This document shows positions 12,319 to 57,345 of a stretch of 64,000 nucleotides of DNA, piece after piece. The position numbers and the translations under genes were made by a program. Under the pieces are notes generated by a model, which did not search any database, was not told the origin of the DNA, and saw only the letters and a program-made list of their open reading frames with translations. The first letter of the stretch is position 1. Each line of letters starts with the position of its first letter. The stretch is from positions 32,001-96,000 of the IMG/VR virus record IMGVR_UViG_3300034107_000273; one strand, given 5' to 3'. Source of the stretch: a virus.

Positions 12319-12350
12319 CCTGGTATACTTATATAGACAAAGGAATAGTT

Positions 12351-13136: not shown

Positions 13137-13413
13137 CAGATGTGACAACAGGTTTGATCCAAAGGTCAGTTATCAAATTTACTGCAGCCTTGAATGTCGT
13201 GACCTTGCTACAAAAGATAAGATTAAAGAAAGATATCAAGTAACTCGTAGACAAAAGAGGAAGGGGAAGGATCGCAGATGTTTAGGCGGATGCAATACTT
13301 CTCTTTCCATCTACAACGATTCTGGATTTTGTGCAAACTGTAATGTAAGCAAAAAGTCTGTTGATAAAATGTTAAAAGATCTGAAAGGTTTTTTTGATTA
13401 TGAGCAAGAATAA
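13123..13413 (+). CDS. Cys-rich Zn-finger protein
   Basis: Multiple CxxC/CxxxC motifs. Confidence 0.65.
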   Translation: MKLCSRCDNRFDPKVSYQIYCSLECRDLATKDKIKERYQVTRRQKRKGKDRRCLGGCNTSLSIYNDSGFCANCNVSKKSVDKMLKDLKGFFDYEQE

Positions 13414-22782: not shown

Positions 22783-23205
22783 ATGGTAAGTGTAATAAAA
22801 CATCCAATGGATCTATTAAATGATCCTTTTTTTATTGGCTTCAACAGAGAGTTGAATCGCCTAAATAGTGCACATAAAACAAACTCACAATCATATCCTC
22901 CATATGATCTTCTTAAACTAGATGAAGATACATATAAGATCTCATTGGCTATTGCTGGATTTTCTAGGGAAGATATTGATGTCTCCGTAGATAATAGAAC
23001 TCTTATTATCAAGGGTGAGATTGTAGAAGTAATAGATGCAGAGGTAGTTCATAAAGGTATCGCAGGAAGAAAGTTCGTAAGATCTTTTGCTCTTGGAGAA
23101 TATATGGAAGTAAGCTCTGCAGAACTAAGGGATGGCATGCTACATATTAACGTAGTCCGCACTGTCCCTGAAGAAAAGAAACCTAAGACAATTAAGATAA
23201 AGTAA
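22783..23205 (+). CDS. Small heat-shock protein (Hsp20/IbpA-like)
   Basis: YPPYD, AIAGFS, FVRSFAL, AELRDGML. Confidence 0.92.
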   Translation: MVSVIKHPMDLLNDPFFIGFNRELNRLNSAHKTNSQSYPPYDLLKLDEDTYKISLAIAGFSREDIDVSVDNRTLIIKGEIVEVIDAEVVHKGIAGRKFVRSFALGEYMEVSSAELRDGMLHINVVRTVPEEKKPKTIKIK

Positions 23206-23210: not shown

Positions 23211-23238
23211 ACACCTGAGCATGTGTATAAACTGCTCA
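23211..23238 (+). ncRNA. Compact H-type pseudoknot motif, copy A
   Basis: ACAC-C-TGAGCA-T-GTGT-ATAAAC-TGCTCA immediately after the Hsp20 stop. Confidence 0.65.
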
Positions 23239-23240
23239 AT

Positions 23241-23273
23241 ATTCACTTGGATTTAATCATAAGTTTACCAATT
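23241..23273 (+). promoter_or_regulatory. Putative PHO box (three 11-nt units)
   Basis: ATTCACTTGGA TTTAATCATAA GTTTACCAATT upstream of the pstS -10. Confidence 0.4.
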
Positions 23274-23312
23274 ATAACAAAAGTATATAGTTTTACACTA
23301 TATACTATAAGT

Positions 23313-24356
23313 ATGAAATTTAAATTCATTACTTTACCAGTAGCATTAGCCATTTTTGCTAATGCTTTTTTTATTACTACTTCACATGCTGATAACCTAC
23401 AAGGTGCTGGATCCACATTTGCTGCTAACTTTATAGACAGATGTAGGGTTGAATTTATTAAATCAACAGGAGATTCTGTTGTATATGGAGCATCTGGATC
23501 GGGTGCTGGTAAAAATATGTTTTCAAATGGTGTAACAGATTTTGCTATGTCAGATGTTCCTTATTCTGGATCAGAACTAAAACCATCAAAAGAATTTACA
23601 TATGTTCCATTAGTCGCAGGACCAATTGGAATTATATACAATCTTGATGGATATAAAATTACTATTAAGATGAGTAAGGATACTCTTGCTAAAGTTTTTG
23701 CGGGACAAATAACAATGTGGAATGATCCACAGATATTAAAAGAAAATATGATAGGAACAAGACTGCCAAAGATACCATCAACAAAGATCAGAGTTGTTTA
23801 CCGTATTGATGGATCTGGAACTTCAGAAGTATTTACGTCATACCTTAACGCAATTGCTCCAAATATATGGACAAAGCCAGGTAATAAAAATTTTATATCT
23901 GCATTTCCTGGTGATATATCTAAGCAATATATGAATAGTGCTTCTGGTTCACATGGCATTGCAATGGTACAGAGTACTACAAATGGATCTATTGGATACA
24001 ACGAGATATCTTATGCAAGAGGACTTAAAACTATTTCTGTTGAGAATGAATCTGGAAGGTTTATGCAACCAACAGTTAGTGCAGCATCTGTATTTCTTGG
24101 AGATTTTGTTCCAGATAAAAGTGGGGCAGTTAAAATAAATTATAAAAATCCTAATAAACTATCCTATAACATATCTACATTCACCTACGGTATAGCATAC
24201 AAAGAAAAGAACTCAAAGAATGATTCTGTAAAGAAGTTCTTTAATTTTATGTTGGATACATGCGGTAAAAAAGCAGAAGATCTTGGATACTCACCAATAA
24301 GAGGAGCTATGCTTAAGTTTGCAAAGTCAAAGGTAGCAGAAGTAAGTTCAAAGTAG
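23313..24356 (+). CDS. pstS: Phosphate-binding protein PstS
   Basis: GAGSTF, SGSGAG, DFAMSD, RIDGSGTSEVFT; signal peptide; leaderless start. Confidence 0.93.
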   Translation: MKFKFITLPVALAIFANAFFITTSHADNLQGAGSTFAANFIDRCRVEFIKSTGDSVVYGASGSGAGKNMFSNGVTDFAMSDVPYSGSELKPSKEFTYVPLVAGPIGIIYNLDGYKITIKMSKDTLAKVFAGQITMWNDPQILKENMIGTRLPKIPSTKIRVVYRIDGSGTSEVFTSYLNAIAPNIWTKPGNKNFISAFPGDISKQYMNSASGSHGIAMVQSTTNGSIGYNEISYARGLKTISVENESGRFMQPTVSAASVFLGDFVPDKSGAVKINYKNPNKLSYNISTFTYGIAYKEKNSKNDSVKKFFNFMLDTCGKKAEDLGYSPIRGAMLKFAKSKVAEVSSK

Positions 24357-26429: not shown

Positions 26430-26678
26430 ATGATTACAGAACAAGAAGATAAAAAAGACTGGGTATTAAAGGCTACAGATCGTTGCGATTCTTGTGCAGC
26501 AGAAGCCCTTGTTCAGGTTACTGGAATTGAAGGTGTTTTAACATTTTGTGGGCATCACTATAATAAAATTATGAACAATCCAGATGGATACAAGAAGATG
26601 ATGTCTTTTGCAATAAGTATTATTGATGAAAGAGATAAGCTTATTCAGAACAAGTTAAAGGATGAAGATTATGTATGA
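26430..26678 (+). CDS. Actinobacterial-type Zn-binding hypothetical protein
   Basis: DRCDSC...FCGHH...DER. Confidence 0.65.
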   Translation: MITEQEDKKDWVLKATDRCDSCAAEALVQVTGIEGVLTFCGHHYNKIMNNPDGYKKMMSFAISIIDERDKLIQNKLKDEDYV

Positions 26679-27078
26679 GTACTATGTTCGTAAAGTAGAG
26701 AATGTCGTAGATGGAGATACCATTGATGTTCTTATTGATTTAGGGTTTGATATTTTATTTCAATCACGTGTTAGATTAGCTGGCATTGATACCCCTGAGT
26801 CTCGCACAAAGGATCTTAAAGAGAAGGCTTTGGGGCTTGAGTCTAAAGAATATCTAAAGAAGCATTTAAAGGATGCTAAGTCTGTTGTCATTAAGACTGA
26901 AAAAATGGATTCCTCTGAAAAGTATGGTCGCATTCTTGGCTGGGTATATATTAATGGTGACACAGAATCTCTTAATGATAAGATGATTAATGATGGATAT
27001 GCTTGGGGATATATGGGTGATACTAAAGTTAAAGACTTTGATGCTCTTGAAAAAGCAAGAAAGAAGTCTGGTAAATGA
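26671..27078 (+). CDS. SNase-like nuclease
   Basis: VVDGDTID, RLAGIDTPES, KYGRILG. Confidence 0.9.
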   Translation: MYEYYVRKVENVVDGDTIDVLIDLGFDILFQSRVRLAGIDTPESRTKDLKEKALGLESKEYLKKHLKDAKSVVIKTEKMDSSEKYGRILGWVYINGDTESLNDKMINDGYAWGYMGDTKVKDFDALEKARKKSGK

Positions 27079-31579: not shown

Positions 31580-32266
31580 ATGTCAAAAACAGCTCTCATA
31601 ATGTGTACTTATATAAGGTTTGAAAACCTTAAAATGACTTTAGGATGCCTACAAAGGCAAACTAATCAAGACTTTGATTTTTATATAGTTGATAATTCTA
31701 ATAGACATGATAAACTATTAGGGTATATTAAAAAATTTGGCAACGGAATTGATGTAACTGTACATAACTACCAGAATGACTTTAAACAATTTGCTAGGTT
31801 CTTGTTAGCAAGAGAACTGGCTGAACAAGGATATGAAAAGATAATCTTTATTGATGATGATGAGATTATTCCAGATACTTTTATACAAGAGTGTCATGAT
31901 CAGTATGAAGAAAATTCTGTTAAAACATTTTGGGCTCATTTTGTAGATAGTATATACAATAAAAAAATAAAATTAGAACATAACGAAATAGGAAACTATG
32001 CAGGAACAGGTGGTTTGATATGTCACTCAAGTTTATTTCTTAATGATGATTTTTTTGATTGCCCAGAGGATTACTGGATCATTGATGATCTTTGGTTATC
32101 TTTTTACATATTAAAACATACAAACCTTAAGATTAAAGAGCTTAAAACAAACATACATTTTATAAAAGACAACAAAGCAACATTTATGACTCTTGGTAAC
32201 TTAAAGCAAAAATTTTCTGAAGAATTTATTATTCCAGTATCTAAGTCTTTAGGGCTAAAGATTTAA
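31580..32266 (+). CDS. Glycosyltransferase, GT2-like
   Basis: IMCTY, IVDN, FIDDD, DDLWLS. Confidence 0.8.
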   Translation: MSKTALIMCTYIRFENLKMTLGCLQRQTNQDFDFYIVDNSNRHDKLLGYIKKFGNGIDVTVHNYQNDFKQFARFLLARELAEQGYEKIIFIDDDEIIPDTFIQECHDQYEENSVKTFWAHFVDSIYNKKIKLEHNEIGNYAGTGGLICHSSLFLNDDFFDCPEDYWIIDDLWLSFYILKHTNLKIKELKTNIHFIKDNKATFMTLGNLKQKFSEEFIIPVSKSLGLKI

Positions 32267-42343: not shown

Positions 42344-42402
42344 GATCGGGACCCCTCGGGCACAACGGCAGGCTTTTGTCAAGCCCACCGCTGGCATCAC
42401 TA

Positions 42403-42615
42403 TTAGAATAGTTTGTATTGGTTGTAGTTATTGTACCGCTCTTGCATTGTGTGTTCCGCTGAGTCTGCAATAGTAATTAAACGATTGTAGATTACATTTG
42501 GTGATGACTCTGCAAGATACTGCCCTATCAAATCAAGGTCTAACCTTAAGTCTGATAGAACATTAGATAGTTGGATTGCTACCTTTTCTTCCTTTGTTAC
42601 CAGTTTTCGTCTCAT
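42403..42615 (-). CDS. Hypothetical protein
   Basis: GAAGGAG SD. Confidence 0.6.
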   Translation of the reverse strand: MRRKLVTKEEKVAIQLSNVLSDLRLDLDLIGQYLAESSPNVIYNRLITIADSAEHTMQERYNNYNQYKLF

Positions 42616-42697
42616 GGTTCTCCTTCATTTCATTGTACCAAAAATAAGGGGGGAGCGCAACCCACCACAAATCGCACTCCCCCGTTGCAGCGTTTGT

Positions 42698-43066
42698 TTA
42701 TACCACTGCGTGCTCAGGCAAATATGCTTGGATAAACTTATCCCATTTGACAGGAACATTATCAGTTACTGTCTTGTTAACAAAATCAATGACGACTGTC
42801 TGGTCTCCTAAATCATAGTTAGTACCATTAATCGCATAGATTCCAAATCCATGCTCATCTAAAATATTATGCTGAATGAGATAACTAATTATCATACGTG
42901 TGCCATATGAAGCATCATTCCAACGTGGCTTGGCATGCTCTAGCGCTTGTGCAATATCAGTCTCCCATCCAGTCTGGCCCCAGTGACTGTATAGAACAAC
43001 AGATACGGAGGGCTCTCCTACTGCAGGATCTGAATCTTTAAAAACAAAGTTAATTCTTGCTCCCAT
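42698..43066 (-). CDS. Conserved phage hypothetical protein
   Basis: LYSHWG, PRWND.SY. Confidence 0.65.
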   Translation of the reverse strand: MGARINFVFKDSDPAVGEPSVSVVLYSHWGQTGWETDIAQALEHAKPRWNDASYGTRMIISYLIQHNILDEHGFGIYAINGTNYDLGDQTVVIDFVNKTVTDNVPVKWDKFIQAYLPEHAVV

Positions 43067-43311
43067 TATTCTTGCTCCTCAATCTCTGTAACTTGTAGTG
43101 GAAACCAATCGTATGCATAATCTTCAACATCTTCAGTTAATTCAATACGATTAATCTCAGCAATTGCAGAGGCTTCATCTTCTGACTCAATCTCAAACTC
43201 ATAGTAAGTTTCTCTAGTGGCAGTTATTTTGTATAGTGGCATTTTCTTCCTTTTCTGTAGTAGTTACTTCAATTGTACCAAAATCTAGGGGCAGTGTCAA
43301 TTCTTCCCACA

Positions 43312-44001
43312 TTAATTGCTCCTGTCGTCATAGGCCTTTTGGTGTGCCTCACACATGTCACTGCTCCAGCCACAGTGTGGGCATGGATAGTCTGAACAGT
43401 CATCACAGTCAATGATTTGGCTATCCTCATAGGTACCGTCACAATCATTGCATTGGTTGTCATACATTGACTCACTAATTATCTTACCACGCAAGAGTTC
43501 ACACTCTCCACCCCAGCCAGTCTCTTCTTCGTATGACAAAGTAAATAATAAATCAGGGTACTGTTCAGAAAGATTAAGTAGAGCAGGCATTGGACGAGAC
43601 CATGCTGTATTAAAGTTATAGTGAACAACGTGGTTCTCACCATTGACTGTATCTTCAACGGTAGTATCAGGGTATTCATTATCTGAAGATACCGCTACAT
43701 CCCACTTAGTACCCCAGTTACGAACATTCCAGTTATACCAATCATCACCCTCAAAGGTAATTGGTAGTTCTGGTGTATGTACAGGCTGACTGTCATAGGT
43801 ATCTAGATTAGTAGGCTTAACAATGTTCCAGAATGCAAAGACAGGGTTTGGATACGTTACCTGTTGTTTTTCCATTTGATGTGTCTCAGTGCTCCAGTTG
43901 TCATGAACACGAACGAATGGTTGATTAAGTTGGTCCATCATTTTCTTGACAGACTCTGGATTGCCTTCTACAGTTAATCCGTTAAATACCCAGTTTGGCA
44001 T
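43312..44001 (-). CDS. Api92/YubB ferredoxin-like domain protein
   Basis: MPNW, WYNWNVRNWGTKWD, FNTAWSRP. Confidence 0.8.
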   Translation of the reverse strand: MPNWVFNGLTVEGNPESVKKMMDQLNQPFVRVHDNWSTETHQMEKQQVTYPNPVFAFWNIVKPTNLDTYDSQPVHTPELPITFEGDDWYNWNVRNWGTKWDVAVSSDNEYPDTTVEDTVNGENHVVHYNFNTAWSRPMPALLNLSEQYPDLLFTLSYEEETGWGGECELLRGKIISESMYDNQCNDCDGTYEDSQIIDCDDCSDYPCPHCGWSSDMCEAHQKAYDDRSN

Positions 44002-44233
44002 GGTGGTTCTCCTTTATTTGTTGGCGGTCTATACTTAAATTATACGTCAAGCAGTATAGGTCTGTCAAGCAGTCTTTGTACCCCTCTGCCCACTGTTTAT
44101 CTTCAAACTCTTTATCTTGCATTTCATTCATCATATTCTTTAACTCGCCGTGCAGGATATCAATTAGAGGAATGCTAAGATCTTCCATAGCACGTTCTAA
44201 GTGCTTGGGTAGGAATGGATACTTATCACTCAT
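43982..44233 (-). CDS. Hypothetical protein
   Basis: GGAG SD. Confidence 0.55.
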   Translation of the reverse strand: MSDKYPFLPKHLERAMEDLSIPLIDILHGELKNMMNEMQDKEFEDKQWAEGYKDCLTDLYCLTYNLSIDRQQIKENHHAKLGI

Positions 44234-44405
44234 TAATTAACTCCAATACATAGTCGTATGCGTCAAGGGCACCCATATAGAAATCATCTGACTCCCAATG
44301 GTATCCCTCTCCAGGGTCAGCACCTTCTTGTGCTTCTTCCATGTCTTGCTCAACGCTGATTCTGTGAATTTTTAAGTACTCTCTTAATGTGTTTATGTCC
44401 ATATA

Positions 44406-44621
44406 TTAATTATAAGGGTTGCTGTTGATTTTGACAAGTTTTGGTGGTGTGATGTTAGTCACAGGCTCCAGGGTAGGTCCCTTAGCATCTGACTCTTCTA
44501 ATAGGATAACTATACCCTCACCGTCACAGATGCAGGAAGGCTCTCTAACAAGATCTGAACAGGCAGTGATTTCAATCAGGGCATCGCAATCAATGCATAG
44601 ATAATCATACTTAGTCCACAT
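44406..44621 (-). CDS. Zn-ribbon protein
   Basis: YDYLCIDC...CIC. Confidence 0.55.
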   Translation of the reverse strand: MWTKYDYLCIDCDALIEITACSDLVREPSCICDGEGIVILLEESDAKGPTLEPVTNITPPKLVKINSNPYN

Positions 44622-44929
44622 AATCAGTCCTTACATATATCGCATAGGGATTCAATACAACAAATAGATTCAACTGAGCACCAATCGCACCAGTCTTTAT
44701 TAAGATTACAATTCATTAGTCAAAGTACCCTTCTGCCCATAAGCCCTGGAGGAAAGAATAGGTTTTAGCCAAACCTTCTCGTAATTGTTCATTAGATGAA
44801 CTATCATGAGCAAGCCCTACAAAATGGCTCATCTCATCTAAATCTGTTTTAGTATAACCTAACATTATTCCTCACATTCACATTTATAGTTTGGGTTTTG
44901 GACGGGTATTCTACAAAAAGGATGACATT

Positions 44930-45142
44930 TCATAGTAGGAAATCATCTCCCTCTATGTATCCATAGTATTCGTTATACTGTTGTTTTAGTTCAGGTGAGG
45001 CATATTGCATAAACATATTTTCTGCATAGTCTTCCCCTTGTTCTAAGTTGTTATTAGACCATTGGTCAAACAACTCTTCTGCAATTTCCTGTATCATTGC
45101 TCCTGTGATGTGTTCTGCTAGTGTGTCTATGAATTGTTCCAT
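44930..45142 (-). CDS. Acidic hypothetical protein
   Basis: AGGAG SD; promoter TTGCTT-17-TAAAAT. Confidence 0.6.
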   Translation of the reverse strand: MEQFIDTLAEHITGAMIQEIAEELFDQWSNNNLEQGEDYAENMFMQYASPELKQQYNEYYGYIEGDDFLL

Positions 45143-45263
45143 TTTTTCTCCTATGGTAGTTATGATATTAATTTTACAGGAAAACTGGGAAAAAAGCAAC
45201 TCCTACGTAATAAAGTTTTTAATGAATGTTTATATTATGTAAAGTGCCCCCGAGCCGTTTTCC

Positions 45264-45340
45264 TGGCGATCCGTACGAGACTTGAACTCGTGACCTCTAC
45301 CGTGACAGGGTAGCGCTCTAACCAACTGAGCTAACGGACC
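45264..45340 (-). tRNA. tRNA-Asp(GTC)
   Basis: Cloverleaf; loop CTGTCAC; encoded CCA. Confidence 0.92.
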
Positions 45341-45383
45341 AATAAGGTGAGCAGTTTTAAATCTTGCTCAGGATTTTTTTTAG

Positions 45384-46400
45384 TTATGCAATCTGCATTA
45401 CGTTTTGCACAACTTTTAGCAAACGATTTTTTTCTGCGTTAATTGCAGGGTCAAAACCACTTGCACTAGCAAGAATACTTTCGTTATTCCCACCACGTGC
45501 AGAACGATACCAGTCAAGGCGTTCTGTTAGTGCATTGAAAGCACCCCATGCGTTACCAGCAATCATGCCGTTAAACTCGCCTGTATAAATGTCGTTAATA
45601 ACATCTACCTTGTTTTCCCATTTCTTGAAAGCACCCTTTGAGTCCTTTTCAGGCTTAGGGTATGCAGAAAGGATAATGTCATTGAAAGACTTAGCATTGA
45701 CTTCTTTTTCAATCATTGCCTTAGCCATGATGTCAAATTCATCCATGTAAGCATTAGCAAGACCAAGAGTCTGTCGTGCAATAGCAACCTTACCGCTTGC
45801 TGTCTGTGTGTGACGTATCTTGAAAGATTGCTTGATACCATTCTTACGCTTTTTCTGATTAAGTGCAAGATTGAGAGTGTTAGCGCACACAACACGAACA
45901 GGTGTAATGCTTGCTTGAATAGCGATAGAGCCGTCATGTGATGTGTTGATAAGTAAATAAGTCTTTACCTTATCTGCAACACCGCTAGGGTCTAGAACAG
46001 TTTCACGCTCTAGTGCTAGTGCGCCAAATACTACACGACCGCCCTTGATTGAGCCAGCAGTTTCCCAACGACCTCCGCCGTCTAGAATGTTATCACCAAA
46101 TGAGAACAAGTCCTCATTCTGCATAACGTGGTAACGCTCACCAACGACACCAAGAATGTCTGTCTGAGAGTTGTCAGTAGGATTGGTACGCAATACATAC
46201 TGATAGTTTTTATCGCTTGTTAAGTGTGATGGAGTTTGCAAATCCTCTAGACGAACATTCCACCCATTGAGGTTAGCAAGAGCCAACATCTCTGATGTGT
46301 TTTTTTCCTCTGTAAAGACTGTACCCAATCCATGCCATGCAGGCTCTCTAAATGAAGCAAAAGAGGTCTTGCCGTTTTGTATTTCTAGGTCATGTGCCAT
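45384..46400 (-). CDS. DUF932 (TIGR03299-like) phage/plasmid protein
   Basis: PAWHGLG, WETAGSIKGG, SHDGS, PVRVVCANTL. Confidence 0.88.
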   Translation of the reverse strand: MAHDLEIQNGKTSFASFREPAWHGLGTVFTEEKNTSEMLALANLNGWNVRLEDLQTPSHLTSDKNYQYVLRTNPTDNSQTDILGVVGERYHVMQNEDLFSFGDNILDGGGRWETAGSIKGGRVVFGALALERETVLDPSGVADKVKTYLLINTSHDGSIAIQASITPVRVVCANTLNLALNQKKRKNGIKQSFKIRHTQTASGKVAIARQTLGLANAYMDEFDIMAKAMIEKEVNAKSFNDIILSAYPKPEKDSKGAFKKWENKVDVINDIYTGEFNGMIAGNAWGAFNALTERLDWYRSARGGNNESILASASGFDPAINAEKNRLLKVVQNVMQIA

Positions 46401-46625
46401 GAGTTTATTTTCCTTTTCTTTTTGTAGTTATTTTAAGTATAGCAGGATAGGCTGACAAATGCAAAGCGGGATAGTTAAAAATGGGAAAAAATGGGGATTA
46501 TTTTAATGTGTCGTAAATCACAGTGTGAGCTTGATCACGCCCCCCGAGCCGCTTTTTTATGCAACGGCATAAATAAAAATAAGGAGCAGTTTTAAAACAT
46601 GCTCAGGTTTATTAGTAGCCCCCTA

Positions 46626-47057
46626 CTAAATACTTACTCTCTCAATGGAAGAGGATAGGTATTGAACTGAGTCTGAACTATAATCAACAGTATCAAAATC
46701 AATTTCATGAATTAAGTTTTGTGCCTCTTCTTCATTACGTGCATTAACTGTAATTGAATACTGAACTTCAACTTCTAGTTCAAATTCTTTTGTTAATTCA
46801 AAACCGCAAATGTCTGCAATTTCTTGTGCTTCTGACTCATTAAGCGTACCTGCTTCAATGGCTTCAAAGGTCCATTCTTGCATTGCTTCTACCATACGAT
46901 TATGCTCTGCTGCTAAGCCGTATGAACGTTGTGTTACTACGCTGATGTGCTTTTCTAGTTCATCTATGCGTGTTTTGTTTGATGCTAACTGTGACTCAAG
47001 GAATTCTCTTGTCAAGTACATTGGCTTTTCTGTTGTTTCTGTGATTGGTTGGTCCAT
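46626..47057 (-). CDS. Hypothetical protein
   Basis: Own promoter; VNARNEEEA domain. Confidence 0.65.
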   Translation of the reverse strand: MDQPITETTEKPMYLTREFLESQLASNKTRIDELEKHISVVTQRSYGLAAEHNRMVEAMQEWTFEAIEAGTLNESEAQEIADICGFELTKEFELEVEVQYSITVNARNEEEAQNLIHEIDFDTVDYSSDSVQYLSSSIERVSI

Positions 47058-47121
47058 AAGGGCTACCTCTTTCTGTTAGTTGTTTAGTTTAATTGTACTG
47101 CAGGGCACTGACAAATGTCAA

Positions 47122-47619
47122 TTACCAAGATGATGCATAAGAAAATGACAACTTATCAATTTCTGGTAGGGCAAATAGGCGTTCTAATTGACGGATAGTA
47201 TTCTTGATATCATTCCAATACCATTCATCAATATCTGTACCACCAAAGAAAAATCCTGCTTGTGGTGGAAATAGGCTAGGGTCTTTAGTTTCTAGCGCAT
47301 GCTTACACAGTGCAAGCAATTCTATTAGTTTATCTTGTGAGACATAGTAGTCTCCACAGTCATCAATACCATTCTGAACATTCTTGACAAACCAAGCATG
47401 TATCTGATTAGCCTTGCGCCAATAAGCACAGGTAACTTCTACACTTGCTCCATAGATATCTGTTGCAACATCTGTGAGTTGTGTCAATGCCATTAGGTCA
47501 TTGAACTTAGGATATACGGCTTCAGGTGATGAATAAGATAATTCATCATTTGCTTGGAGCGCTTTCCAATTAATTTTTTCTAAATGCTTCTTAGCACTAA
47601 GGTACATGTCTAATCCCAT
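47122..47619 (-). CDS. Conserved phage hypothetical protein
   Basis: MGLDMYL, YWRKANQIHAWF, GFFFGG. Confidence 0.75.
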   Translation of the reverse strand: MGLDMYLSAKKHLEKINWKALQANDELSYSSPEAVYPKFNDLMALTQLTDVATDIYGASVEVTCAYWRKANQIHAWFVKNVQNGIDDCGDYYVSQDKLIELLALCKHALETKDPSLFPPQAGFFFGGTDIDEWYWNDIKNTIRQLERLFALPEIDKLSFSYASSW

Positions 47620-47887
47620 GGGGGCTTCCTTCTTTCTGTTGTTCTGATATTAATATAATTCTAGCAGGTTGGACTGACAAATGCCAATCGTAAATCCTGG
47701 GATCTTAAATAGTGGTACGTAAAGGGTGTGATTAAATTCACATGAGCTCGGGGGCAAAAAGTGAACAGTTTTAATTCATGTTCAGGAATGCACCGCCTCG
47801 CTATAGCACTGGCAGTAACTTTGTTGAGCAGTTTTGCAACCTACTCAGGTTGTTTGGGTTCAGGACTTTAATTGCCTCCCAAATTAT

Positions 47888-48310
47888 TTAGAGATAACGA
47901 GCAACCGCATTGTAAGTGCTTGTGCTAACTACTTCCTCATCTGTCATCTTTAGGATACGAATAGCATTAGAGATTTCCTCTTTCTGCTCACGATAGTTAT
48001 AAACAGAGATTGACTCAAAATCCCTCTCAGGCTCTTTAGGTAAATCCTTGTCTGATACTGTTAGGTCGTAGTCAATGTTGAGAGTGTTGTTCCAGTTGCG
48101 ATAGTTAGTGCGAAAGTTTTCAGCCTTCTTGATGTTAGCAACCGCATAGTCGCTAATCTCTTTCTGCCAAGCCTTACGCAACTTTTCATACTTTGCTTCG
48201 TTTGCTTCTTGTGATGCGTAGTCTGCTTCTAGTTTAGCAAGTGCTACTTCTAGTGCCTTGATTACCTTTGGTGTTGCTATCTTTACTGAGATTGCTTTTT
48301 GACGTGCCAT
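47888..48310 (-). CDS. Hypothetical protein
   Basis: Own promoter. Confidence 0.65.
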   Translation of the reverse strand: MARQKAISVKIATPKVIKALEVALAKLEADYASQEANEAKYEKLRKAWQKEISDYAVANIKKAENFRTNYRNWNNTLNIDYDLTVSDKDLPKEPERDFESISVYNYREQKEEISNAIRILKMTDEEVVSTSTYNAVARYL

Positions 48311-48416
48311 GTGTTTTTCTCTTTTCTTTGGTGGGTTATTTATAGTATAGGGGTTGGGTGTGACATTTTTAGTGTGAGCAGTTTTAATTCATACTCAGGA
48401 ATAAGCAATTAACTAG

Positions 48417-48584
48417 TTACGCTTGGGCTTTCCATGTTGTCCAGCGTGTGTTGCCATTAACGTCTAACTTAACACGAACTGTATCCTTTGATGTTGGTGC
48501 GATTTCAAGGATTGTTCCTGTTACCTTTGACTTTTGTGATGTGTAGAGGTCGCCTACCTTGTATGTGTTTGTTGCTACTGTCAT
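48417..48584 (-). CDS. Small SH3/KOW-like protein
   Basis: YKVGD...TGTILEI; AGGAG SD. Confidence 0.55.
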   Translation of the reverse strand: MTVATNTYKVGDLYTSQKSKVTGTILEIAPTSKDTVRVKLDVNGNTRWTTWKAQA

Positions 48585-48771
48585 TTTATTTCTCCTTTTT
48601 AGTTTGTTGTATGTATTAAGTATAACATTTCCCACTGACATTTTTCAACTCCATTTCTGTTATTTCTCACTATTTGAGACGCTTGCGGGTGTGATGTAGG
48701 TCACTATTGGTAAATCAGGAACACTAATAGGGCTATTATGAATAGCGGAATTATGCTTTCCATTTATCTCC

Positions 48772-49494
48772 TTACTTTTTACTTGATGAGAATACAACGT
48801 CACTCTTTGAGTATACACAAAGTGAGCAAGAAACGCAAGCGGAGCCTTGTTGAGAGATTAGGGGAATGGCTTTTTTATTCTCAGGACACTTTGCCCCTAC
48901 CTTGCCAATCATCTCTTTCATGTCTGCTTGTCCTACTTGAAAGTTTTTTGCGAGGTATGCAAGACGAATACCATGATCTGTTTTAAGACCAATACCTATA
49001 GCCTTGTTTTCGCTATCTGTAGAATAGTATAAAGATAGATTAGGAATATCTTTAAGCATTACCGCTGCACTCTTCACTCTTGTATAAACCCAGAATTGAA
49101 TTTCAGGATTATTAAGGATGACATGCTTCCATGCGAATGTATAAGTATCATTAAAGAAGTCGCCGTCCCAATGAATACGGAATAGCATAGGGGCTTCACG
49201 CTTTACACAATCAGCCTTGAAGTCTGCAATCATCTCTTCAAGCAATGCTTCAATAGTATCATGATCAGCGTCTTTAACTAATTCCCAATTATGTAATAGG
49301 TTTTTCTTTACTGTTGGGAATACCTTTTCCAATTTGCCTGCATAGCAAACACTCTCGCAGACACTCGTTGCGCCAGGACATGAATAGTTTTTTCCTGCAG
49401 GTAGTCCAAAGGTGTTGGCGATACTTGCTTGTTTTCCATTAGGGGTGACGGCATTAGCGACCTTTCTGTCTTTGCTTCTGAGTAGTTTAGTCAT
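48772..49494 (-). CDS. Gp88-like Fe-S (radical-SAM-like) phage protein
   Basis: FGLPAG..SCPGA..CESVCYA, FRIHWDGDF, WVYTR. Confidence 0.7.
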   Translation of the reverse strand: MTKLLRSKDRKVANAVTPNGKQASIANTFGLPAGKNYSCPGATSVCESVCYAGKLEKVFPTVKKNLLHNWELVKDADHDTIEALLEEMIADFKADCVKREAPMLFRIHWDGDFFNDTYTFAWKHVILNNPEIQFWVYTRVKSAAVMLKDIPNLSLYYSTDSENKAIGIGLKTDHGIRLAYLAKNFQVGQADMKEMIGKVGAKCPENKKAIPLISQQGSACVSCSLCVYSKSDVVFSSSKK

Positions 49495-49723
49495 GGTGGG
49501 TTACTCGCTTTCTTTCTTTAATTTTAGCATTTGGGACTGACATTTTTTTCTATTGTATTTCTTTTTATTTGGAACAGCTGAGGCTGCATTAGAACGGCGA
49601 AGTTCCATTAACCTTCTTAATTCCTCAGAATTTTTCTTCATAACTTAATCTTATCAGAAATGGGAAAAAATATCAAATCTCTTAAATGTGATCAATCTCA
49701 CAGGGCCCCCTCGGGCCGTTTTT

Positions 49724-49957
49724 TCAATCTAAATAAACGTACCAATCAACTTCATCATCAAATGCAAACTGAACAATTTCTGATTCACCAAAATCATTTG
49801 TTATTTGAATGTCATAGTTATCTCCTGTTGAATCACTTTCAATAAAAGTAATTTCAACAATCTCATCACCATAACCAATTAGATCCCCAATCTGTAGTGC
49901 ATCTACAGTTAGCGAATCTGCTTTGACTAGTTCCATGTCAATCATTGTAGCACTCAT
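49724..49957 (-). CDS. Acidic hypothetical protein
   Basis: LQIGDLI; GGAG SD. Confidence 0.55.
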   Translation of the reverse strand: MSATMIDMELVKADSLTVDALQIGDLIGYGDEIVEITFIESDSTGDNYDIQITNDFGESEIVQFAFDDEVDWYVYLD

Positions 49958-50098
49958 TTAGATAAACTCCGCTAAATCTCTATCCATTATTTCATTCATG
50001 TCCACTCCTTGAGTTTCTGCTATGGCTTCCCATAGGTCTGATTCTGTATAGTTTCCATCAGGATACCATTCTGCTAAAAGTGAGTATAAGTCTGTCAT

Positions 50099-50422
50099 TT
50101 ATTCTAATCCCAATCCTAATTCATAGCCTGCATCTTCTTCCCAATAGTCTGCCTCATCTTGTGGCAACCATGGGTCTAAGTGGTGTTGTTCAATAATTGC
50201 AAACGCTGGAGCGTGGCTCATTCCCTTATAGAATACTCCGTCTGGCATCGCAATCTGGCGCATGGCATCATTTTCATGGTATGCGTCAATAGCATCTATG
50301 CAAGGCTGAACCATGCTTAGTGGTACTGGTGGATAGTGATTACCTTGTAAGTGATAACCAATAGCCTGTTCAAGTGTTATGTCTAGGTTTTCTGCTAAGT
50401 CCATCGCTGTATTGTATCCCAT
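50099..50422 (-). CDS. Hypothetical protein
   Basis: HLQGNHYPPVP. Confidence 0.65.
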   Translation of the reverse strand: MGYNTAMDLAENLDITLEQAIGYHLQGNHYPPVPLSMVQPCIDAIDAYHENDAMRQIAMPDGVFYKGMSHAPAFAIIEQHHLDPWLPQDEADYWEEDAGYELGLGLE

Positions 50423-50640
50423 TATCGTGTTACCACCATTCCTGTTTTGTAGAAAGTTTTTGTGTGCATTTTGCCTGAAGGTTCAGACAAGTTAATTGTT
50501 GAGTATTCATTAGCAAGTCCATGGTCAATAAACTTTTGATAAACTTCAACGGCAGATAGGCAATCGCTATAACGACCAACCCAAGTAGTAGTAGGGTCTG
50601 AGTCATAGGTACAAGTGACTGAGTATAGGTATTCGTTCAT
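50422..50640 (-). CDS. Hypothetical protein
   Basis: Coupled ORF. Confidence 0.6.
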   Translation of the reverse strand: MNEYLYSVTCTYDSDPTTTWVGRYSDCLSAVEVYQKFIDHGLANEYSTINLSEPSGKMHTKTFYKTGMVVTR

Positions 50641-50831
50641 TAGTTATTCTCCTTATAGTTTTCGTTCATTATACTTTCAGCATACCATGCACAGTATTCA
50701 TTTTCAAGCGACACGCCCTTGTTGCAATCGCAAAATTCTGAGTCGTATTCCTCGCCACCATTACCAAAAAAGAGGACACCCTCATCATGGCAATCAACGC
50801 AATCAACCAAAAAGTCTAGTAAGTTTCCCAT
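50640..50831 (-). CDS. Small Cys-rich protein
   Basis: CVDC...CDC. Confidence 0.6.
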   Translation of the reverse strand: MGNLLDFLVDCVDCHDEGVLFFGNGGEEYDSEFCDCNKGVSLENEYCAWYAESIMNENYKENN

Positions 50832-50835
50832 TTAT

Positions 50836-51045
50836 TTATTCTCCAATCTTTACGGCTACTGTAGCCCAAAAGTCTTTTATGCCACGTGTTGGCGATACCT
50901 GAATTGCATACGCCTCAAAGTCTGAGCCGTACCAAACTGAGTCACGCTTTTCAGCATGAACAACAACACCCTCATCATGGCGAGAGTGTGAGCGATAGTA
51001 TTTTCCTACTAGTAGGCTTTCTATTGTATAAGGTTTTGCTGACAT
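50836..51045 (-). CDS. Hypothetical protein
   Basis: First gene after the promoter at 51090. Confidence 0.6.
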   Translation of the reverse strand: MSAKPYTIESLLVGKYYRSHSRHDEGVVVHAEKRDSVWYGSDFEAYAIQVSPTRGIKDFWATVAVKIGE

Positions 51046-51273
51046 TAGCAACCTGCTTTCTTTTTGTTTATTTAACTTATTACTCTGTAATCCTATCATG
51101 CGAGGCAGACAAAAAACTAATTACTAGCGAGTAATCTTAAATAGTGAGACGCTCAGAAAATGTGAGAAAAATCACAACCACGTAAAGTTATCCACAAGAG
51201 CCTGTGGAAAACCCCCCGAGCTTTTTTATTTGAAAAGATCAAGCAGTTTTAAAACTTGCTTAGGTTTTTTATT

Positions 51274-51480
51274 TTATTTTAGTAAAGCGTGTAATTCTGG
51301 CAGTTGGCAAATTTCTTTTGTGCAAGCATCATAGAATTTATTTTCATCAAATCTAGGATTGTCTGCACTGAACCATTCACTGAATTCAAAAATTAAATCT
51401 TGAAAAGTTTTTAATTCAATTTCATTTGCAAACTGATTTAGAATTTTTGCAGTTTCAACGTAGTCTTTACGTGTCATCAT
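51274..51480 (-). CDS. Hypothetical protein
   Basis: MTRKDY...DNPRFD. Confidence 0.65.
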   Translation of the reverse strand: MMTRKDYVETAKILNQFANEIELKTFQDLIFEFSEWFSADNPRFDENKFYDACTKEICQLPELHALLK

Positions 51481-51640
51481 TATAGGCTCACCAATTTTTC
51501 TACATAGTGTGAAATTTGATTGTATGCATTAGCGCATTGATAACAATAAGTCTCAGTAGGAATTCCACCAAGCATTAGCGCATCAATTCCTGAATAAACC
51601 AACTCTGTTGAGTTGCAATTAATTACTTGACACTCTTTCA

Positions 51641-51844
51641 TTATTCTGCCACCTTTAGAATTGCGTATGAGCCATTTTTATTTATTTCATCAAGAATAGG
51701 TTGCAAGCGTGAGCCAACCAATTCCTTTAGCATTTCTTCAAGCATTTGGACTTGCTCTTGCTTAGGAAGTGCAGCCATTGCCAGTGTGATAGGGTGTCCT
51801 GATTTGAATTCTGTTACGAATTTTAGATTATGTTCAACGTTCAT
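51641..51844 (-). CDS. Hypothetical protein
   Basis: ORF in operon context. Confidence 0.55.
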   Translation of the reverse strand: MNVEHNLKFVTEFKSGHPITLAMAALPKQEQVQMLEEMLKELVGSRLQPILDEINKNGSYAILKVAE

Positions 51845-51863
51845 TTATTTTATTTCCTATTCT

Positions 51864-52061
51864 TTAGTTTGAGTTAGTAAGTGTGCGAGTGCCACGTAGT
51901 GTTCCTGTAACACCTAGGGCATCACAAGATAGTTTTACAGATACGCCAACAGGTAATTGTGTTGGGTATTGTGAGATGAATTGAGCAACAGCACCTTGTG
52001 AGGCGAAGTTGATTTTTTTTGTTGAACCTGAAAAGGTTTCTAGTGTTACAGTGTAAGTCAT
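51864..52061 (-). CDS. Hypothetical protein
   Basis: GGGAG SD; own promoter. Confidence 0.6.
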   Translation of the reverse strand: MTYTVTLETFSGSTKKINFASQGAVAQFISQYPTQLPVGVSVKLSCDALGVTGTLRGTRTLTNSN

Positions 52062-53896
52062 TAAGTGACTCCCTTTCGTTTGTTTGATAAGACTATCTTA
52101 CCATTTGGGGCTGACAAATTAGGGCATTTATTTGCTAGGCTCATTGTGATTTGCATCACACTTATTTGCTAGGCTCACTGCCTTATTTATCTTTATTTAA
52201 TTGTTATACCTACAAGGGTACCAGATAAGTTTCAGGAAGTCAAAACGACACGCCGTAAAATGGGAAAAAATTTGTGTGACCTTAAACACATAAGTTATAC
52301 ACAGCCTGTGGAAAACGCCTCGGGCCGTTTTTTATGCATGGATCTGAATTTTTATAAATTAGATTTCCAATAAATAAAACCAAACACAATCATTGCAATC
52401 ATTACAACCAACATTTTTTATTCTCTTTCTAATTCTGTGTAATCAACAACAACAAAATCAAGTCGTTCCAATGGAATAACTTTTAACCAAGATAGTGCAG
52501 ACTCAAAGTTATCATCCTCAATGGTGACGGATAAATCAAAATTAAAAACTGGCATTATTTATTCTCCTTATAAAGAAAGTCCCACGCCTTACGGCATAAC
52601 ACAATTGAATTGCAATTGTCACAACAGATAACACCATGCTCATTTAATTCTAAATCATACATGTCAATCATGGCAGTTACTGCACCACATACAGATTTTA
52701 CAGGCACATAGGTACTCATTATTTCTCACACTCACATTCTAAAGCAGATAGGTCAAAGTCGCAATGCTTGCAACCTTGAAACAAAAAGTGTTCATTGCAA
52801 TAAATTGCAGTTTGCATTTCCTCGCAACACAAGAATTGTTTTGTGCCACGCAAAAAGACATTTGTTAAAGACATAGGGAAAAGGACAAGTGTAGGGGTAC
52901 TCATTAGTTACTCACATACCAATCTGTCCATGTAGGGAATTGTTCAGGGTCACTATCATAGTAGTAACGCTCAATGTTATTTTCACAATCCATGCAGAAA
53001 GTAAATTGTTCATCTCCAATTTCAGAGATAGCGGAAAGCATAGGTTTATGCTCATGTGTTTTTGTTAATGTAGTCATTTTATGACCACCTTTCTTTAGCG
53101 GATTTCTTTACCACTTTTATTTTCTTATACTGCAAGTATAGCCTATAAGTCTGACATTTATCAACCTACTAGCCAGTAATTCCAGATAGTGAGACGCTCA
53201 AGTAATGTGATAAAGGACACACTTACTTAAAGTTATCCACAGAAGTTATCCACAGGCGCCCCGAGCAAAAAATCGCAGCTTTTTATTTCTGCGATCTTTT
53301 TTTATTTATAAATTACTTTGCGAATAAATAAAACCAAAAACAATAAATGCAATCATCACAACTAACAATTTATTTCTCCTCAATTTCATCTAGTAGATCC
53401 CATAGTGCAGTTTCTAATTCTTTAGAAACTAAATCTAATTTTTCTTGTAGTGTTTTCATTCTGCATTCTCCAATTCATTTATGTCTGCGACATAGACATT
53501 GTTTTTATTTATTCCATAGTTTAATTGGAATTCAAATACAGTGATAGCCTCATCATAGGAATCAGCCTCAACGTTTATGAAAGTATTAAATTCAAATGTA
53601 GCCATTCTTTATTCTCCCTTTATAGTGTTTTTCCGCAGTGGTTACAAGGTTTTCCTTGGTGGTCTATGCTAAGGGCATCATAGTTTGTGCCCTTCCAACA
53701 ATGGTGGCATACGATTACAAAGTCCATTATTCTGTTACCGCCTTATCTGTTATCATTTTAAGAATTAACTGTAACTGTTCTGTAGTTAGTAGTGCTTGAG
53801 CGCAACCCCAAGCAAATGAAAGCGCAAGCGCACTATCTCCATAGTGCTCATTAGCAAGAGTGTTTATCTCTTGCGTTATCTCAAAATTAGTTTTCA

Positions 53897-53992
53897 TTAT
53901 TTATTTTCTTCTTTCTTTAGTAGTGATAGGGCAAGGGCAAGACTTTGCTTGCGCTGGGCTTCTACGTGAGCCTTGTATTCTTCAAGTGTCAT
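53897..53992 (-). CDS. 31-aa microprotein, copy 1
   Basis: MTLEEYKAHVEAQRKQSLALALSLLKKEENK; GAAAGG SD. Confidence 0.7.
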   Translation of the reverse strand: MTLEEYKAHVEAQRKQSLALALSLLKKEENK

Positions 53993-54243
53993 TTATCTGA
54001 CCTTTCTTTTTCTTTATACTGTAATTGTAGCATGGGGGTCTGACAAATTGGGGGATATCCATGGGCGTGTCGTAGAATTATTTTTGTGATGTTGGTCACA
54101 AACGGCCCGAGCAAAATTTGCAGCTGTTACACTGCAAATCTTTTTTTACTTATTGCCAAACATGTTAAATATTTCATCAACCTGTTCATCAGTTAAGTGA
54201 TCTAACTGAATTGCTTTTTCAAATTCAAAGAAATCTTTTTCCA

Positions 54244-54438
54244 TTATTCTGTTTCCTCGTTTTCTTCTAGTGCATCTTGAAAGTCATAGAGTGCCTCATT
54301 GTATGCGATTGGGTCGCACTCTTTTAGTATTTGCGAAGGGTAAAAAGTTAATTGTCCTATAGTTACAACAGGATAAGAATCATCTAGCATTTCATCAAAT
54401 AATTCTTTACTAGCGAAAGCCATTTCAAAATCTAACAT
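54244..54438 (-). CDS. Acidic phage hypothetical protein
   Basis: FDEMLD...PSQILKECDPIAY. Confidence 0.65.
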   Translation of the reverse strand: MLDFEMAFASKELFDEMLDDSYPVVTIGQLTFYPSQILKECDPIAYNEALYDFQDALEENEETE

Positions 54439-54584
54439 TAGTTTTCTTCTTTCTGTAGTAGGTAAGTATTAGTTAGGGAACGATTATTATTTGAGAACAT
54501 AGACTCTATAACCGCTTTATCTTTTAGTGATTGAGCAATTCTTTTATCTTGTTGCTCTTTTAGAATTCTATCAAATGTGCTCAT
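54438..54584 (-). CDS. 48-aa protein, copy 1
   Basis: MSTFDRILKEQ...SMFSN...YLLQKEEN; paralog at 55414. Confidence 0.7.
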   Translation of the reverse strand: MSTFDRILKEQQDKRIAQSLKDKAVIESMFSNNNRSLTNTYLLQKEEN

Positions 54585-54676
54585 TTGTCTGAGCCTTTCT
54601 TTAGTAGGGACATGGCTTGCAAGGTGCTTGCCTTGCGTTGCGCCTCAACGTGCGCCTTGTATTCTTCTAGTGTCAT
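54581..54676 (-). CDS. 31-aa microprotein, copy 2
   Basis: MTLEEYKAHVEAQRKASTLQAMSLLKKGSDK. Confidence 0.7.
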   Translation of the reverse strand: MTLEEYKAHVEAQRKASTLQAMSLLKKGSDK

Positions 54677-55413
54677 TTATTTAACGACCTTTCTTGTTGT
54701 TTATACTAGCAATTCTAGCATGGGGGTCTGACAAATTAGCCTATTTGTTAGGGTGTGTCGTGTGTGACCTTAGTCACGCCACAGGAATGGATTACCTGTA
54801 GCCTCATAGCCGTCACGCCATGAACAGCGAGGATAGACAGTGTGACTAGAAACATAGCCACACTCTGGGCAGATAACGTTTGCTAGTCGTGAGCGCATGG
54901 TTTCATAGCCCTCTGCATTTCTATTTTCAAACAGTGAGTTCATTTGGAACTCCTTTCTTTATTTTCTTTATACTAGTATTCTAGCACCTACCACTGACAA
55001 ATTTGGAGATTTTTTGGGCGTGTCGTAGAACTATTTTTGTGATCCTCATCACATGGCCCCCGAGGCGTGTGAGCGACATCACATGCGACACGCCGTGTTT
55101 AGATTTGCTTTTGTCAGTCCTAACTGTTATACTTGCAGTATTAGATAGTTAAAGTATAACTACTAAACGAAAGGTCACTAACATGAACCCATTTACAGCA
55201 CTACAAGATTTCCTAGATGAGAATGTCGCTTACGGACTAATTGGAGCCTTCATAGGCGTAGCAGTAGCCGTTATCCTATGCCTTACGCTTGGAGCGTGAC
55301 ACACATCACACAACGCCAACGGCGTGTCGCCTTGACTTTTCAGGGTATGTATGATACCCTTACAGGTATAACAATTAAATAAGATTAACTAACTAACAAG
55401 AAAGGTGTTCAGA

Positions 55414-56521: not shown

Positions 56522-56719
56522 TCACCATTTCTCTATAGGACATTTTGCTTTTTCTAATTTAGTTTTTAGCTTCATAAAGCAACCACACTTCTTGCAAGTC
56601 TGATTTCCTTTACGAAAGAATTCACATGTTCTGCATATTGCCAAACGGTATTCTTCAAGTTCTTCTGGACTTCTAGGAGATCCATTAATAAGATCCCAAG
56701 GCTTTACATCATCACTCAC
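56522..56719 (-). CDS. DUF6171-like Cys-rich protein
   Basis: RLAICRTC...CKKCGCFM...CPIEKW. Confidence 0.7.
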   Translation of the reverse strand: MSDDVKPWDLINGSPRSPEELEEYRLAICRTCEFFRKGNQTCKKCGCFMKLKTKLEKAKCPIEKW

Positions 56720-57345
56720 AATATCTCCAATTTGGACGGTATATCAATGATATCACAAGAGACTGTAGTCCATAACTGATGAGACATAGTAGGACGTATA
56801 GTAGCAGACATACCTGGTATCTCCATTACATATTTGTAGCCTTTTCCATGCTTAGATTCTTTTCTTGACCAATGCTCAAAACCATAATCTAATTTGGATG
56901 CTTCAAATACAAATAGATAATACGTCTTAGTCTCAATTTTGGACGGTATATGAGACCAATCCTGGTCTGCTTTGGCTAAACACACATACCAATCAGCATG
57001 TGTAGATGAAACACTCTCAACCATTTTCTCTAATGTTTCGTGTTTGCCTAGCCTAGATCCAGATATAACCAATGTAGCCTTCTCTGGGTCATATCTTCCT
57101 GACTTGACGGATATACTCTCTCCTGACTCCAAAGTCATGTCTATACTGACGCTATGGCTTCTATCAGGCTTCCAGTCATTTGGCATACCGTTTTCATTTA
57201 GGGTATCTGAGACTAGCTCTTCTAAATACTCACTTGTACAAGGTAATCTATATACCGAATGATGGATTGCCAGCTTTTCTAGCAAACCACCAATTAGAAT
57301 ATTTTTGAGTTTATCACGCATAATAGAATCCATTGTATCAGACAT
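56716..57345 (-). CDS. Putative restriction-endonuclease-fold protein
   Basis: EE...D-x9-SVKS arrangement resembling a PD-(D/E)XK core. Confidence 0.4.
   Translation of the reverse strand: MSDTMDSIMRDKLKNILIGGLLEKLAIHHSVYRLPCTSEYLEELVSDTLNENGMPNDWKPDRSHSVSIDMTLESGESISVKSGRYDPEKATLVISGSRLGKHETLEKMVESVSSTHADWYVCLAKADQDWSHIPSKIETKTYYLFVFEASKLDYGFEHWSRKESKHGKGYKYVMEIPGMSATIRPTMSHQLWTTVSCDIIDIPSKLEIL

Follow-up and report, generated by a model that had tools for sequence, protein, structure and literature searches.

A hexamer confined to early gene junctions

The DNA described here is a window of 64,000 bp (bases 32001 to 96000 of the 107,956-bp virus record IMGVR_UViG_3300034107_000273), and its subject is a hexamer, CCCGAG (CTCGGG on the opposite strand), which recurs in the early region and is called the junction word below. 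The sequencing runs that hold this stretch are lake-water metagenomes, represented by assembled contigs. The genes between 42 and 56 kb lie tightly packed on the minus strand, and the window contains 10 matches of the hexamer, 6 on the plus and 4 on the minus strand, all of them intergenic on the gene map. The copies are listed in window coordinates.

55059..55064, plus strand: junction word, common to two divergent early promoter modules
54106..54111, plus strand: junction word
53260..53265, plus strand: junction word
52319..52324, minus strand: junction word
51215..51220, plus strand: junction word
49710..49715, minus strand: junction word, the sole copy within a clear hairpin (GGCCC/GGGCC)
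47747..47752, minus strand: junction word
46543..46548, plus strand: junction word, upstream of the DUF932 gene that served as the anchor for relatives
45249..45254, plus strand: junction word, about 10 nt beyond the 3′ end of tRNA-Asp
42355..42360, minus strand: junction word, the last copy, closing the early array

These ten are the sole copies in the whole 107,956-bp record, and the related palindromes CCCGGG and CTCGAG both number 0 in the genome. Dinucleotide shuffles of the sequence (n = 100) yielded 4.2 ± 2.0 copies, with fewer than 10 in every one of them. Among 6-mers with at least 6 copies genome-wide, the two with the strongest spatial clustering are CCCGAG and the overlapping CCGAGC, and by our own arithmetic ten random points would fall within 11.8% of a circular genome with a probability of about 4e-8. 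An earlier note on this DNA had given ten coordinates for the hexamer, all of which are exact, and its statements that the copies are always intergenic, have no counterpart elsewhere, never take the form CCCGGG or CTCGAG, and end at the point of transcriptional divergence (55059, between two divergent promoter modules) are confirmed by the counts and the gene map. The note had also described a core that flips orientation between fixed flanks. The core does flip, while the flanks are not fixed: an extra G/C lies on the 5′ side of the motif, in motif orientation, in both orientation classes, and the flipping unit is about 9 to 10 bp rather than the six-base core alone.

Organization of the junctions

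Read along the transcribed strand, each junction passes from the end of the preceding operon into a GC island of 8 to 12 bp that holds the word, and then through a regulatory header, a promoter, and a ribosome-binding site to the genes. The preceding operon ends in a terminator-like hairpin with a T run, in an A run, or in the tRNA-Asp gene, and the first header box starts 3 to 7 bp after the word. The earlier note's view that the hexamer divides this region into self-contained units is supported; the layout that the note had given, with the word between one unit's header and the 3′ end of the next, is better described on the minus strand as upstream operon end, word, CRP- or DnaA-type boxes, promoter, and genes. 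Each early promoter module thus has a single word at its upstream edge, and two divergent modules share one between them. The features that illustrate this arrangement are the following.

55068..55083, no strand assigned: CRP-type palindrome, 3 bp from the word at 55059, rightward divergent module
55038..55053, no strand assigned: CRP-type palindrome TGTGA-N6-TCACA, 5 bp from the word, leftward module (read from sequence)
54978..54999, minus strand: early promoter TGTCAGTGG-N-TAGAAT, PafBC/RecA-NDp-like form, 59 nt past the word
54024..54045, minus strand: early promoter, PafBC/RecA-NDp-like form
53233..53254, minus strand: two DnaA-box-like nonamers TGTGGATAA, beginning 5 bp past the word
53135..53156, minus strand: early promoter, PafBC/RecA-NDp-like form
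47658..47679, minus strand: early promoter, PafBC/RecA-NDp-like form
46436..46457, minus strand: early promoter, PafBC/RecA-NDp-like form
45264..45340, minus strand: tRNA-Asp, ending one unit and followed by the word in all lineages looked at

The headers vary from unit to unit and carry either a CRP-type TGTGA-N6-TCACA palindrome or DnaA-box-like TGTGGATAA nonamers, together with GACACGCC-type and T-rich motifs; between positions 44400 and 55300 of the window the CRP-type palindromes are perfect, the DnaA-box nonamers occur singly, in tandem, or inverted, and GACACGCC is repeated. The GACAC of these headers resembles the WhiA motif. The two divergent headers at 55059 share one word, which is flanked by CRP-type boxes at distances of 3 and 5 bp. 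Most early units have their own promoter of the form TGTCAG-N10-13-TAnnnT, and the early promoters (TGTCAG(T/A)..-N-TAnnnT, window positions 46436 to 54999, minus strand) share their shape with actinobacterial PafBC/RecA-NDp DNA damage promoters. As predicted from the motif, PafBC-type promoters would tie early expression to a damage regulator of the host.

Within one genome the word alone is common to all junctions, while the headers are of CRP or DnaA type and the spacing differs, which argues for selection on the word itself. The distance from the word to the −10 element can be as short as 75 nt or as long as 220 nt, and 2 words lack such a promoter in their vicinity; this spread rules out the word as a fixed promoter element, and the variable spacing makes it an upstream-edge element instead. 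The word was also rejected as a hairpin or terminator element, since RNA folding of ±16 nt around each of the ten copies gave no common hairpin and a clean stem at 49710 only. A search of Rfam families over 41.5 to 56.5 kb found tRNA-Asp and nothing else, and the word lies in no family. A separate recurrent element of about 27 nt, CCTGAGCA-N-AAACTGCTC, occurs just past stop codons at many loci (e.g., window positions 46560 to 46600 and 51240 to 51270, minus strand), where it is hairpin-like and precedes T runs.

Other words at the same junctions in related phages

The DUF932 protein encoded beside the site at 46543 was used as a query and identified 384 related IMG/VR stretches, the majority of lake-metagenome origin, of which 80 loci were fetched as the anchor-gene set. 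The relatives are metagenomic contigs only, and words were assigned by k-mer heuristics that left about one-third of the loci without an assignment. CCCGAG is present in 5 to 10 copies in about one-quarter of the 80 loci and absent from about one-half. In loci that lack it, the orthologous junctions hold other short GC-rich words, mostly CpG-centered palindromes with GC flanks, including GTCGGGC (GCCCGAC), CACGTG, CCTAGG, GACGTC (often as GGGACGTCCC), and CGGACCG, as well as TCGA followed by an A run and plain CCGG with variable flanks. Each word is limited to one arc of about 9 to 12 kb in long or complete contigs and is rare or absent outside it, as the following genomes illustrate.

G008: 9 CCCGAG in 11 kb of 106 kb
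G010, G011, and G015: 8 to 9 CCCGAG each
G001 to G003: 7 GTCGGGC, in both orientations
G007 and G012: 8 CACGTG each
G005: GACGTC-type words (GACGTC 8, ACGTCC 13) in one 12-kb arc
G013: 7 ACGTCCC
G016 and G017: 9 and 8 CCGG, respectively, in one 12-kb arc, and none elsewhere in 63 to 64 kb

The word can differ at orthologous junctions whose flanks are near-identical (e.g., L009 versus L012 and L071 versus L043), and it can be conserved across genomes that are only about 75% identical in DNA; the GCCCGAC heptamer occupies 7 of 7 junctions in its lineage. On the anchor-gene tree the words are scattered and close relatives differ in word, which shows fast switching, mosaicism, or both. The hexamer is most likely this lineage's version of a family-wide junction word, a short, GC-flanked, mostly CpG-centered palindrome or half-palindrome.

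No near-identical DNA was found among cultured phages. The DnaE-type polymerase is about 55% identical to the versions of cultured Streptomyces phages, and the genome encodes GP88 and DUF932 proteins, which we take to be typical of actinophages. On the basis of the DnaE similarity, these two proteins, and the PafBC-type promoters, the host is likely actinobacterial.

Banned palindromes and the asymmetry of the word

Several 4-bp palindromes are missing or nearly so from this genome (CCGG, 0 versus 35 expected; TCGA, 0 versus 67; CGCG, 2 versus 29). Across the relatives G001 to G018, CCGG occurs only in lineages whose junction word it is, almost all genomes have next to no CGCG, and TCGA or AGCT is absent by lineage, with AGCT at 0 versus 300 to 370 expected in five genomes. 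TGCGCA is likewise near zero, CTCGAG was counted 0 times in 7 of 7 genomes tested, and the observed/expected ratio of CpG is 0.42 to 0.49, with an excess of TG/CA. Genome-wide, the 4-mer at the core of a word is scarcer in the lineage that uses this word than elsewhere: ACGT stands at 0.32 to 0.37 of expectation in ACGT-word genomes versus 0.5 to 0.7 in most others, and CTAG at 0.63 of expectation in the CTAG-word lineage versus about 0.9 elsewhere.

All ten copies fit the AvaI-type degenerate palindrome CYCGRG. The CCGG ban excludes CCCGGG and the TCGA ban excludes CTCGAG, so that of the CYCGRG forms just CCCGAG/CTCGGG is permitted; the word is never palindromic because both 4-mers are banned. 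The 6:4 division of orientations is expected of a symmetric CYCGRG site, or of a CCCGGG ancestor that underwent C-to-T changes independently on one strand or the other. A relative that is free of TCGA (L041) retains CCCGGG at six junctions, and CCGA-type words are concentrated in TCGA-free lineages. We doubted the CYCGRG reading at one point, on the ground that TCGA-containing CCCGAG lineages have no CTCGAG, and then kept it, CTCGAG being absent from every genome tested. The earlier note had suggested decoys for a CYCGRG-recognizing enzyme; the resemblance to such a site stands, and the involvement of an enzyme survives in the modified form given below.

A protein with a restriction-endonuclease-like fold and the loss of TCGA

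One gene of the window tracks a ban.

56716..57345, minus strand: P0001, 209 amino acids, PD-(D/E)XK restriction-endonuclease-like fold, presence tracking total TCGA absence

All 8 long genomes free of TCGA encode P0001, and none of the 10 that contain TCGA does. A further 80 loci with a P0001 relative, 1.09 Mb in total, have no TCGA where 844 copies were expected, while just 17 of the 80 anchor-gene loci are TCGA-free. The protein matched no Pfam, PHROG, or NCBIfam family, and its 631 homologues are unnamed metagenome proteins; the invariant residues include E42/E43, D69, and S79-x-K81. With the AlphaFold model (predicted local distance difference test [pLDDT], 83) a Foldseek search returned no clear match. 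Exhaustive structural comparison of the same model gave SwaI (Z 7.4), ThaI (7.3), EcoRV (6.5), SfiI (6.5), and BglI (5.9), followed by MutH, NaeI, Sau3AI, NlaIV, NhoI, DpnI, and HinP1I; the span from SwaI to NaeI is Z 7.4 to 5.3. The best matches are almost all Type II restriction endonucleases; the Z values are moderate and scores under 8 can mean just a common arrangement, so the weight lies in the consistency of the list. Language-model neighbors of P0001 include a viral cluster with the ThaI family in 15% of its members. The ThaI Pfam model and the P0001 profile found no match in TCGA-containing relatives, the open reading frames (ORFs) at the P0001 locus of G005 and G006 belong to no Pfam or NCBIfam family, and the nearest language-model neighbors of the G005 ORF are not restriction enzymes. 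Methyltransferases of PF00145 (C5) and PF01555 (N4/N6) are absent from the genome, other methyltransferase families not having been searched.

We consider it probable that P0001 is a cutter of TCGA from which the phage is protected by having no TCGA of its own. The TCGA ban, together with P0001 and no methyltransferase found, implies a self-immunity gained through erasure of the site. The tail modules, too, differ between the TCGA-free and AGCT-free groups, which makes host association a possible confounder of the link between P0001 and TCGA; 28 P0001-bearing loci are AGCT-free as well, which loosens this confounding. AGCT-free lineages (G004 to G008, G012, and G018) and AGCT-containing ones (G000 and G009 to G011) have different tail/baseplate modules and probably use different hosts, and early and replication genes recombine across this divide. 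A search for a gene behind the AGCT ban was unsuccessful: only tail-module genes and a 106-amino-acid ORF separate AGCT-free from AGCT-containing genomes, and the ORF is missing in two AGCT-free ones. This ORF (L100:2835-3155; 102835 to 103155 in G005, plus strand) occurs in 8 of 10 AGCT-free relatives and in 0 AGCT-containing genomes; by eye it resembles a small GIY-YIG/T5orf172-type domain and is a candidate for a second site-ban enzyme.

A possible boundary mark at the early modules

The single copy per edge, the indifference to orientation, the replacement of one word by another, and the purge from the rest of the genome are best fitted by a DNA-level, sequence-specific, symmetric reader. 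We therefore favor, as a tentative reading in which the mechanism is the conjectural part, a boundary or insulator mark bound by a protein of restriction enzyme type. The word would be read on double-stranded DNA in either orientation by a symmetric protein recognizing in effect CYCGRG, of which the CCGG and TCGA bans would leave the asymmetric CCCGAG/CTCGGG as the sole available forms. Bound at the word, the reader would mark and isolate each early transcription unit, and the occupied site might serve as an insulator or roadblock against read-through and the spill-over of supercoils. Stray copies inside genes would be harmful and would be purged, and the specificity of the reader, or the choice of reader, would shift quickly between lineages, as restriction specificities do. 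We rank binding above cutting in view of what a double-strand cut at each infection would cost the phage.

Several observations weigh against a bound boundary mark. No reader was found: no ORF within ±10 kb co-varies with the word (3,930 ORFs clustered over the 80 loci) and no allele tracks CCCGAG (152 ORFs of G000 compared over 17 long relatives), tests from which specificity changes of a few residues would escape. P0001 itself tracks TCGA and not the junction word. Uniformity within a genome is not absolute: some junctions of L010 and L017 read CCGAGG or CCCGAC, and the mosaic L038 combines GCCGGC on one side with CCCGAG on the opposite side. In the CCGG-word lineages the conserved core is just 4 bp, which is short for a roadblock protein and a better fit to a nuclease. 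An allele of the Cas4-family exonuclease, with 82 to 99% identity among five CCCGAG genomes, was considered as a correlate of the word and rejected, since G010 has the CCCGAG word yet only 59 to 63% identity.

Alternative explanations

The words may instead be programmed break sites, at which a restriction-type nuclease of phage or host cuts or nicks the phage genome and nowhere else, releasing intact promoter-to-terminator units, creating recombinogenic ends for recombination-dependent replication, or allowing cut-and-join exchange of early cassettes among co-infecting relatives. We regard this as unlikely. In its favor, the words resemble Type II sites and have been cleared from other positions, as expected of nuclease targets, the phage encodes P0001 with no C5 or N4/N6 methyltransferase found, its genes include RecA, the Cas4-family exonuclease, a staphylococcal-type nuclease, DnaB, and DnaG, the content of the early units is highly mosaic, and a cut at a word upstream of the entire header would leave each unit whole. 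Yet no nuclease allele tracks the word, ten double-strand cuts per genome copy would be costly, and the known phage nick systems act on one strand (PMC3517423), while the words here have both orientations. This last point also speaks against the T5-type nick signal of the earlier note, since T5, phiKMV, and tf all obey the one-strand rule (PMC3517423) that the 6 plus-strand and 4 minus-strand words break; for staged injection, which the note had coupled with it, there was no support. A further point against break sites is that cassette-skipping joints in the lake contigs, among them one from 51099 to 53151 in four lake-metagenome runs, lie in promoter and 5′ untranslated region (5′ UTR) sequence rather than at a word, with short sides and low likeness weakening them as evidence. 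A related proposal, a self-restriction layout in which orphan endonucleases act on a genome with sites erased throughout and one site type kept at the early-unit borders, seems rather unlikely to us. If true, every unit would amount to a natural restriction fragment, whose cutting would set off recombination-dependent replication or let co-infecting relatives swap anti-defense cassettes by cut-and-join, and word switching would create incompatibility groups. The integron-like crossover sites for cassette exchange that the earlier note had entertained we hold to be very improbable. A word at each border of each unit (n + 1 words for n units) and variable unit content would suit them, but profiles of tyrosine (PF00589) and serine (PF00239) recombinases were unmatched in the complete genome with positive controls, the 6-bp site has no attC-like folded structure, the units have promoters of their own where integron cassettes are mostly promoterless and share one promoter, and homology breakpoints against relatives pile up at several words and equally at other gene borders.

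A word with no dedicated reader would be a by-product of two processes, the concerted evolution of promoter-terminator modules by gene conversion, as in the promoter-early stem-loops (PeSLs) of T4-type phages (PMC2839356, PMC4122927), and bans that leave few GC-rich sequences accessible by transitions, such as CCCGGG becoming CCCGAG or CTCGGG by a C-to-T change on either strand. A single transition would yield both observed forms in random orientation, the CCCGGG retained at six junctions of TCGA-free L041 and the concentration of CCGA-type words in TCGA-free lineages agree with it, and so does the PeSL-like architecture, with terminator and early promoter between small early genes (PMC2839356, PMC4122927). 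It leaves a uniform ancestor unexplained, however, and only the outer positions change, CCTGGG and CCCAGG being never seen; the headers around the word are not homogenized, the word persists across genomes of about 75% identity, and GCCCGAC is complete in its lineage. We rate this origin as rather unlikely. Somewhat less credible still are host restriction-modification sites, whereby the word would be the methyltransferase or endonuclease site of the current host strain, retained at promoters as a decoy or epigenetic mark and lost from other positions under restriction. The scatter of words on the anchor-gene tree and their differences between very close relatives are what host-strain restriction-modification repertoires would produce, contig names place different word types together in single lake samples, the searched methyltransferase families are missing from the phage, and CpG is depleted with a TG/CA excess. 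Against this, ten sites would burden every host switch and bring no obvious benefit, a phage gene is linked to the TCGA ban, for which no host enzyme need be invoked, and no host genome was identified, leaving no word linked to a host enzyme.

Beside these questions stand two observations on recombination. Joins at 51099/53151, 49545/53436, and 54024/52245 recur in several lake-metagenome runs and appear to mark population variants in which whole early units are skipped or rearranged, the borders lying in promoter or 5′ UTR sequence; by analogy, the pattern of joints may represent PeSL-like homologous exchange (PMC2839356, PMC4122927). RecA and the Cas4-family PD-(D/E)XK exonuclease are encoded together (window positions 10567 to 13136 and 13394 to 13996) with a 200-amino-acid ORF whose N terminus is RuvC-like by eye, and these three with DnaB, DnaG, and DnaE form a full kit for recombination-dependent replication.

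Comparison with known systems

Restriction-site avoidance is one known counterpart, and the virus-encoded restriction enzymes of chloroviruses are another. The present family is like these in the complete loss of short palindromes and in encoding a Type II-like endonuclease, here a predicted one. It differs in that no cognate methyltransferase was found, protection appears to come from site loss alone, and one site type is kept at about ten regulatory junctions.

The actinophage phiC31 has multi-copy intergenic operators, with sites of about 17 bp. The stoperators of Cluster A mycobacteriophages (PMC6550527, PMC9283540) are the nearest regulatory analogue, as they too occur in many lineage-specific intergenic copies with a consensus that differs among related phages. 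They differ in being 13 bp long, asymmetric, mostly in one orientation relative to transcription, distributed genome-wide, and read by the identified repressor of a temperate phage, whereas the junction words are 4 to 7 bp, lie in both orientations in the early region only, and belong to a genome in which no repressor and no integrase was found. In CCCGAG the information is confined to the 6 bp and about 2 flanking positions.

PeSLs are likewise composite terminator/early-promoter modules between small variable early genes in a plastic region, with unit content that differs among close relatives, and terminator-like hairpins, promoters, and mosaic content between small early ORFs are all found here. 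They differ in acting via their own sequence homology, and they lack a separate 6-bp word of the present kind, which has no other copies in its genome, is indifferent to orientation, is replaced from lineage to lineage, and has been cleared from all other positions. The nick sites of T5, phiKMV-like phages, and tf (PMC3517423, PMC10644984) resemble the junction word in being short specific sequences of unknown function with 4 to 14 copies per genome, and the T5 consensus R/GCGCRGG also has a CG-rich core (PMC3517423, PMC10644984). The nick sites are all on one strand, in contrast to the 6:4 division here and to the true palindromes of relatives.

Other genes and implications

Elsewhere in the window, a family-2 glycosyltransferase (31580 to 32266, plus strand) has a sub-threshold match to the TET-associated glycosyltransferases (23.9 bits versus a cut-off of 27.5), and several 2OG-Fe(II) oxygenases are encoded near it; the site bans argue against DNA hypermodification. 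Auxiliary genes encode a PstS-like phosphate-binding protein (23223 to 24356, plus strand), Hsp20 (22783 to 23205, plus strand), and a staphylococcal-nuclease homologue (26662 to 27078, plus strand).

Hundreds of contigs of one uncultured phage family thus have one restriction-site-like word at the upstream edge of each early module and nowhere else, and the word is exchanged for another between close relatives. We know of no described counterpart for such an edge word, for the absolute loss of 4-bp palindromes, or for a TCGA ban tied to a phage gene with an endonuclease fold. If the words are cut, they would form a natural restriction-fragment cassette system, with a bearing on why some phages carry site-specific breaks. 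If, as we tentatively prefer, they are read by a fast-evolving DNA reader, the family would offer a compact natural system of orthogonal insulators or operators.

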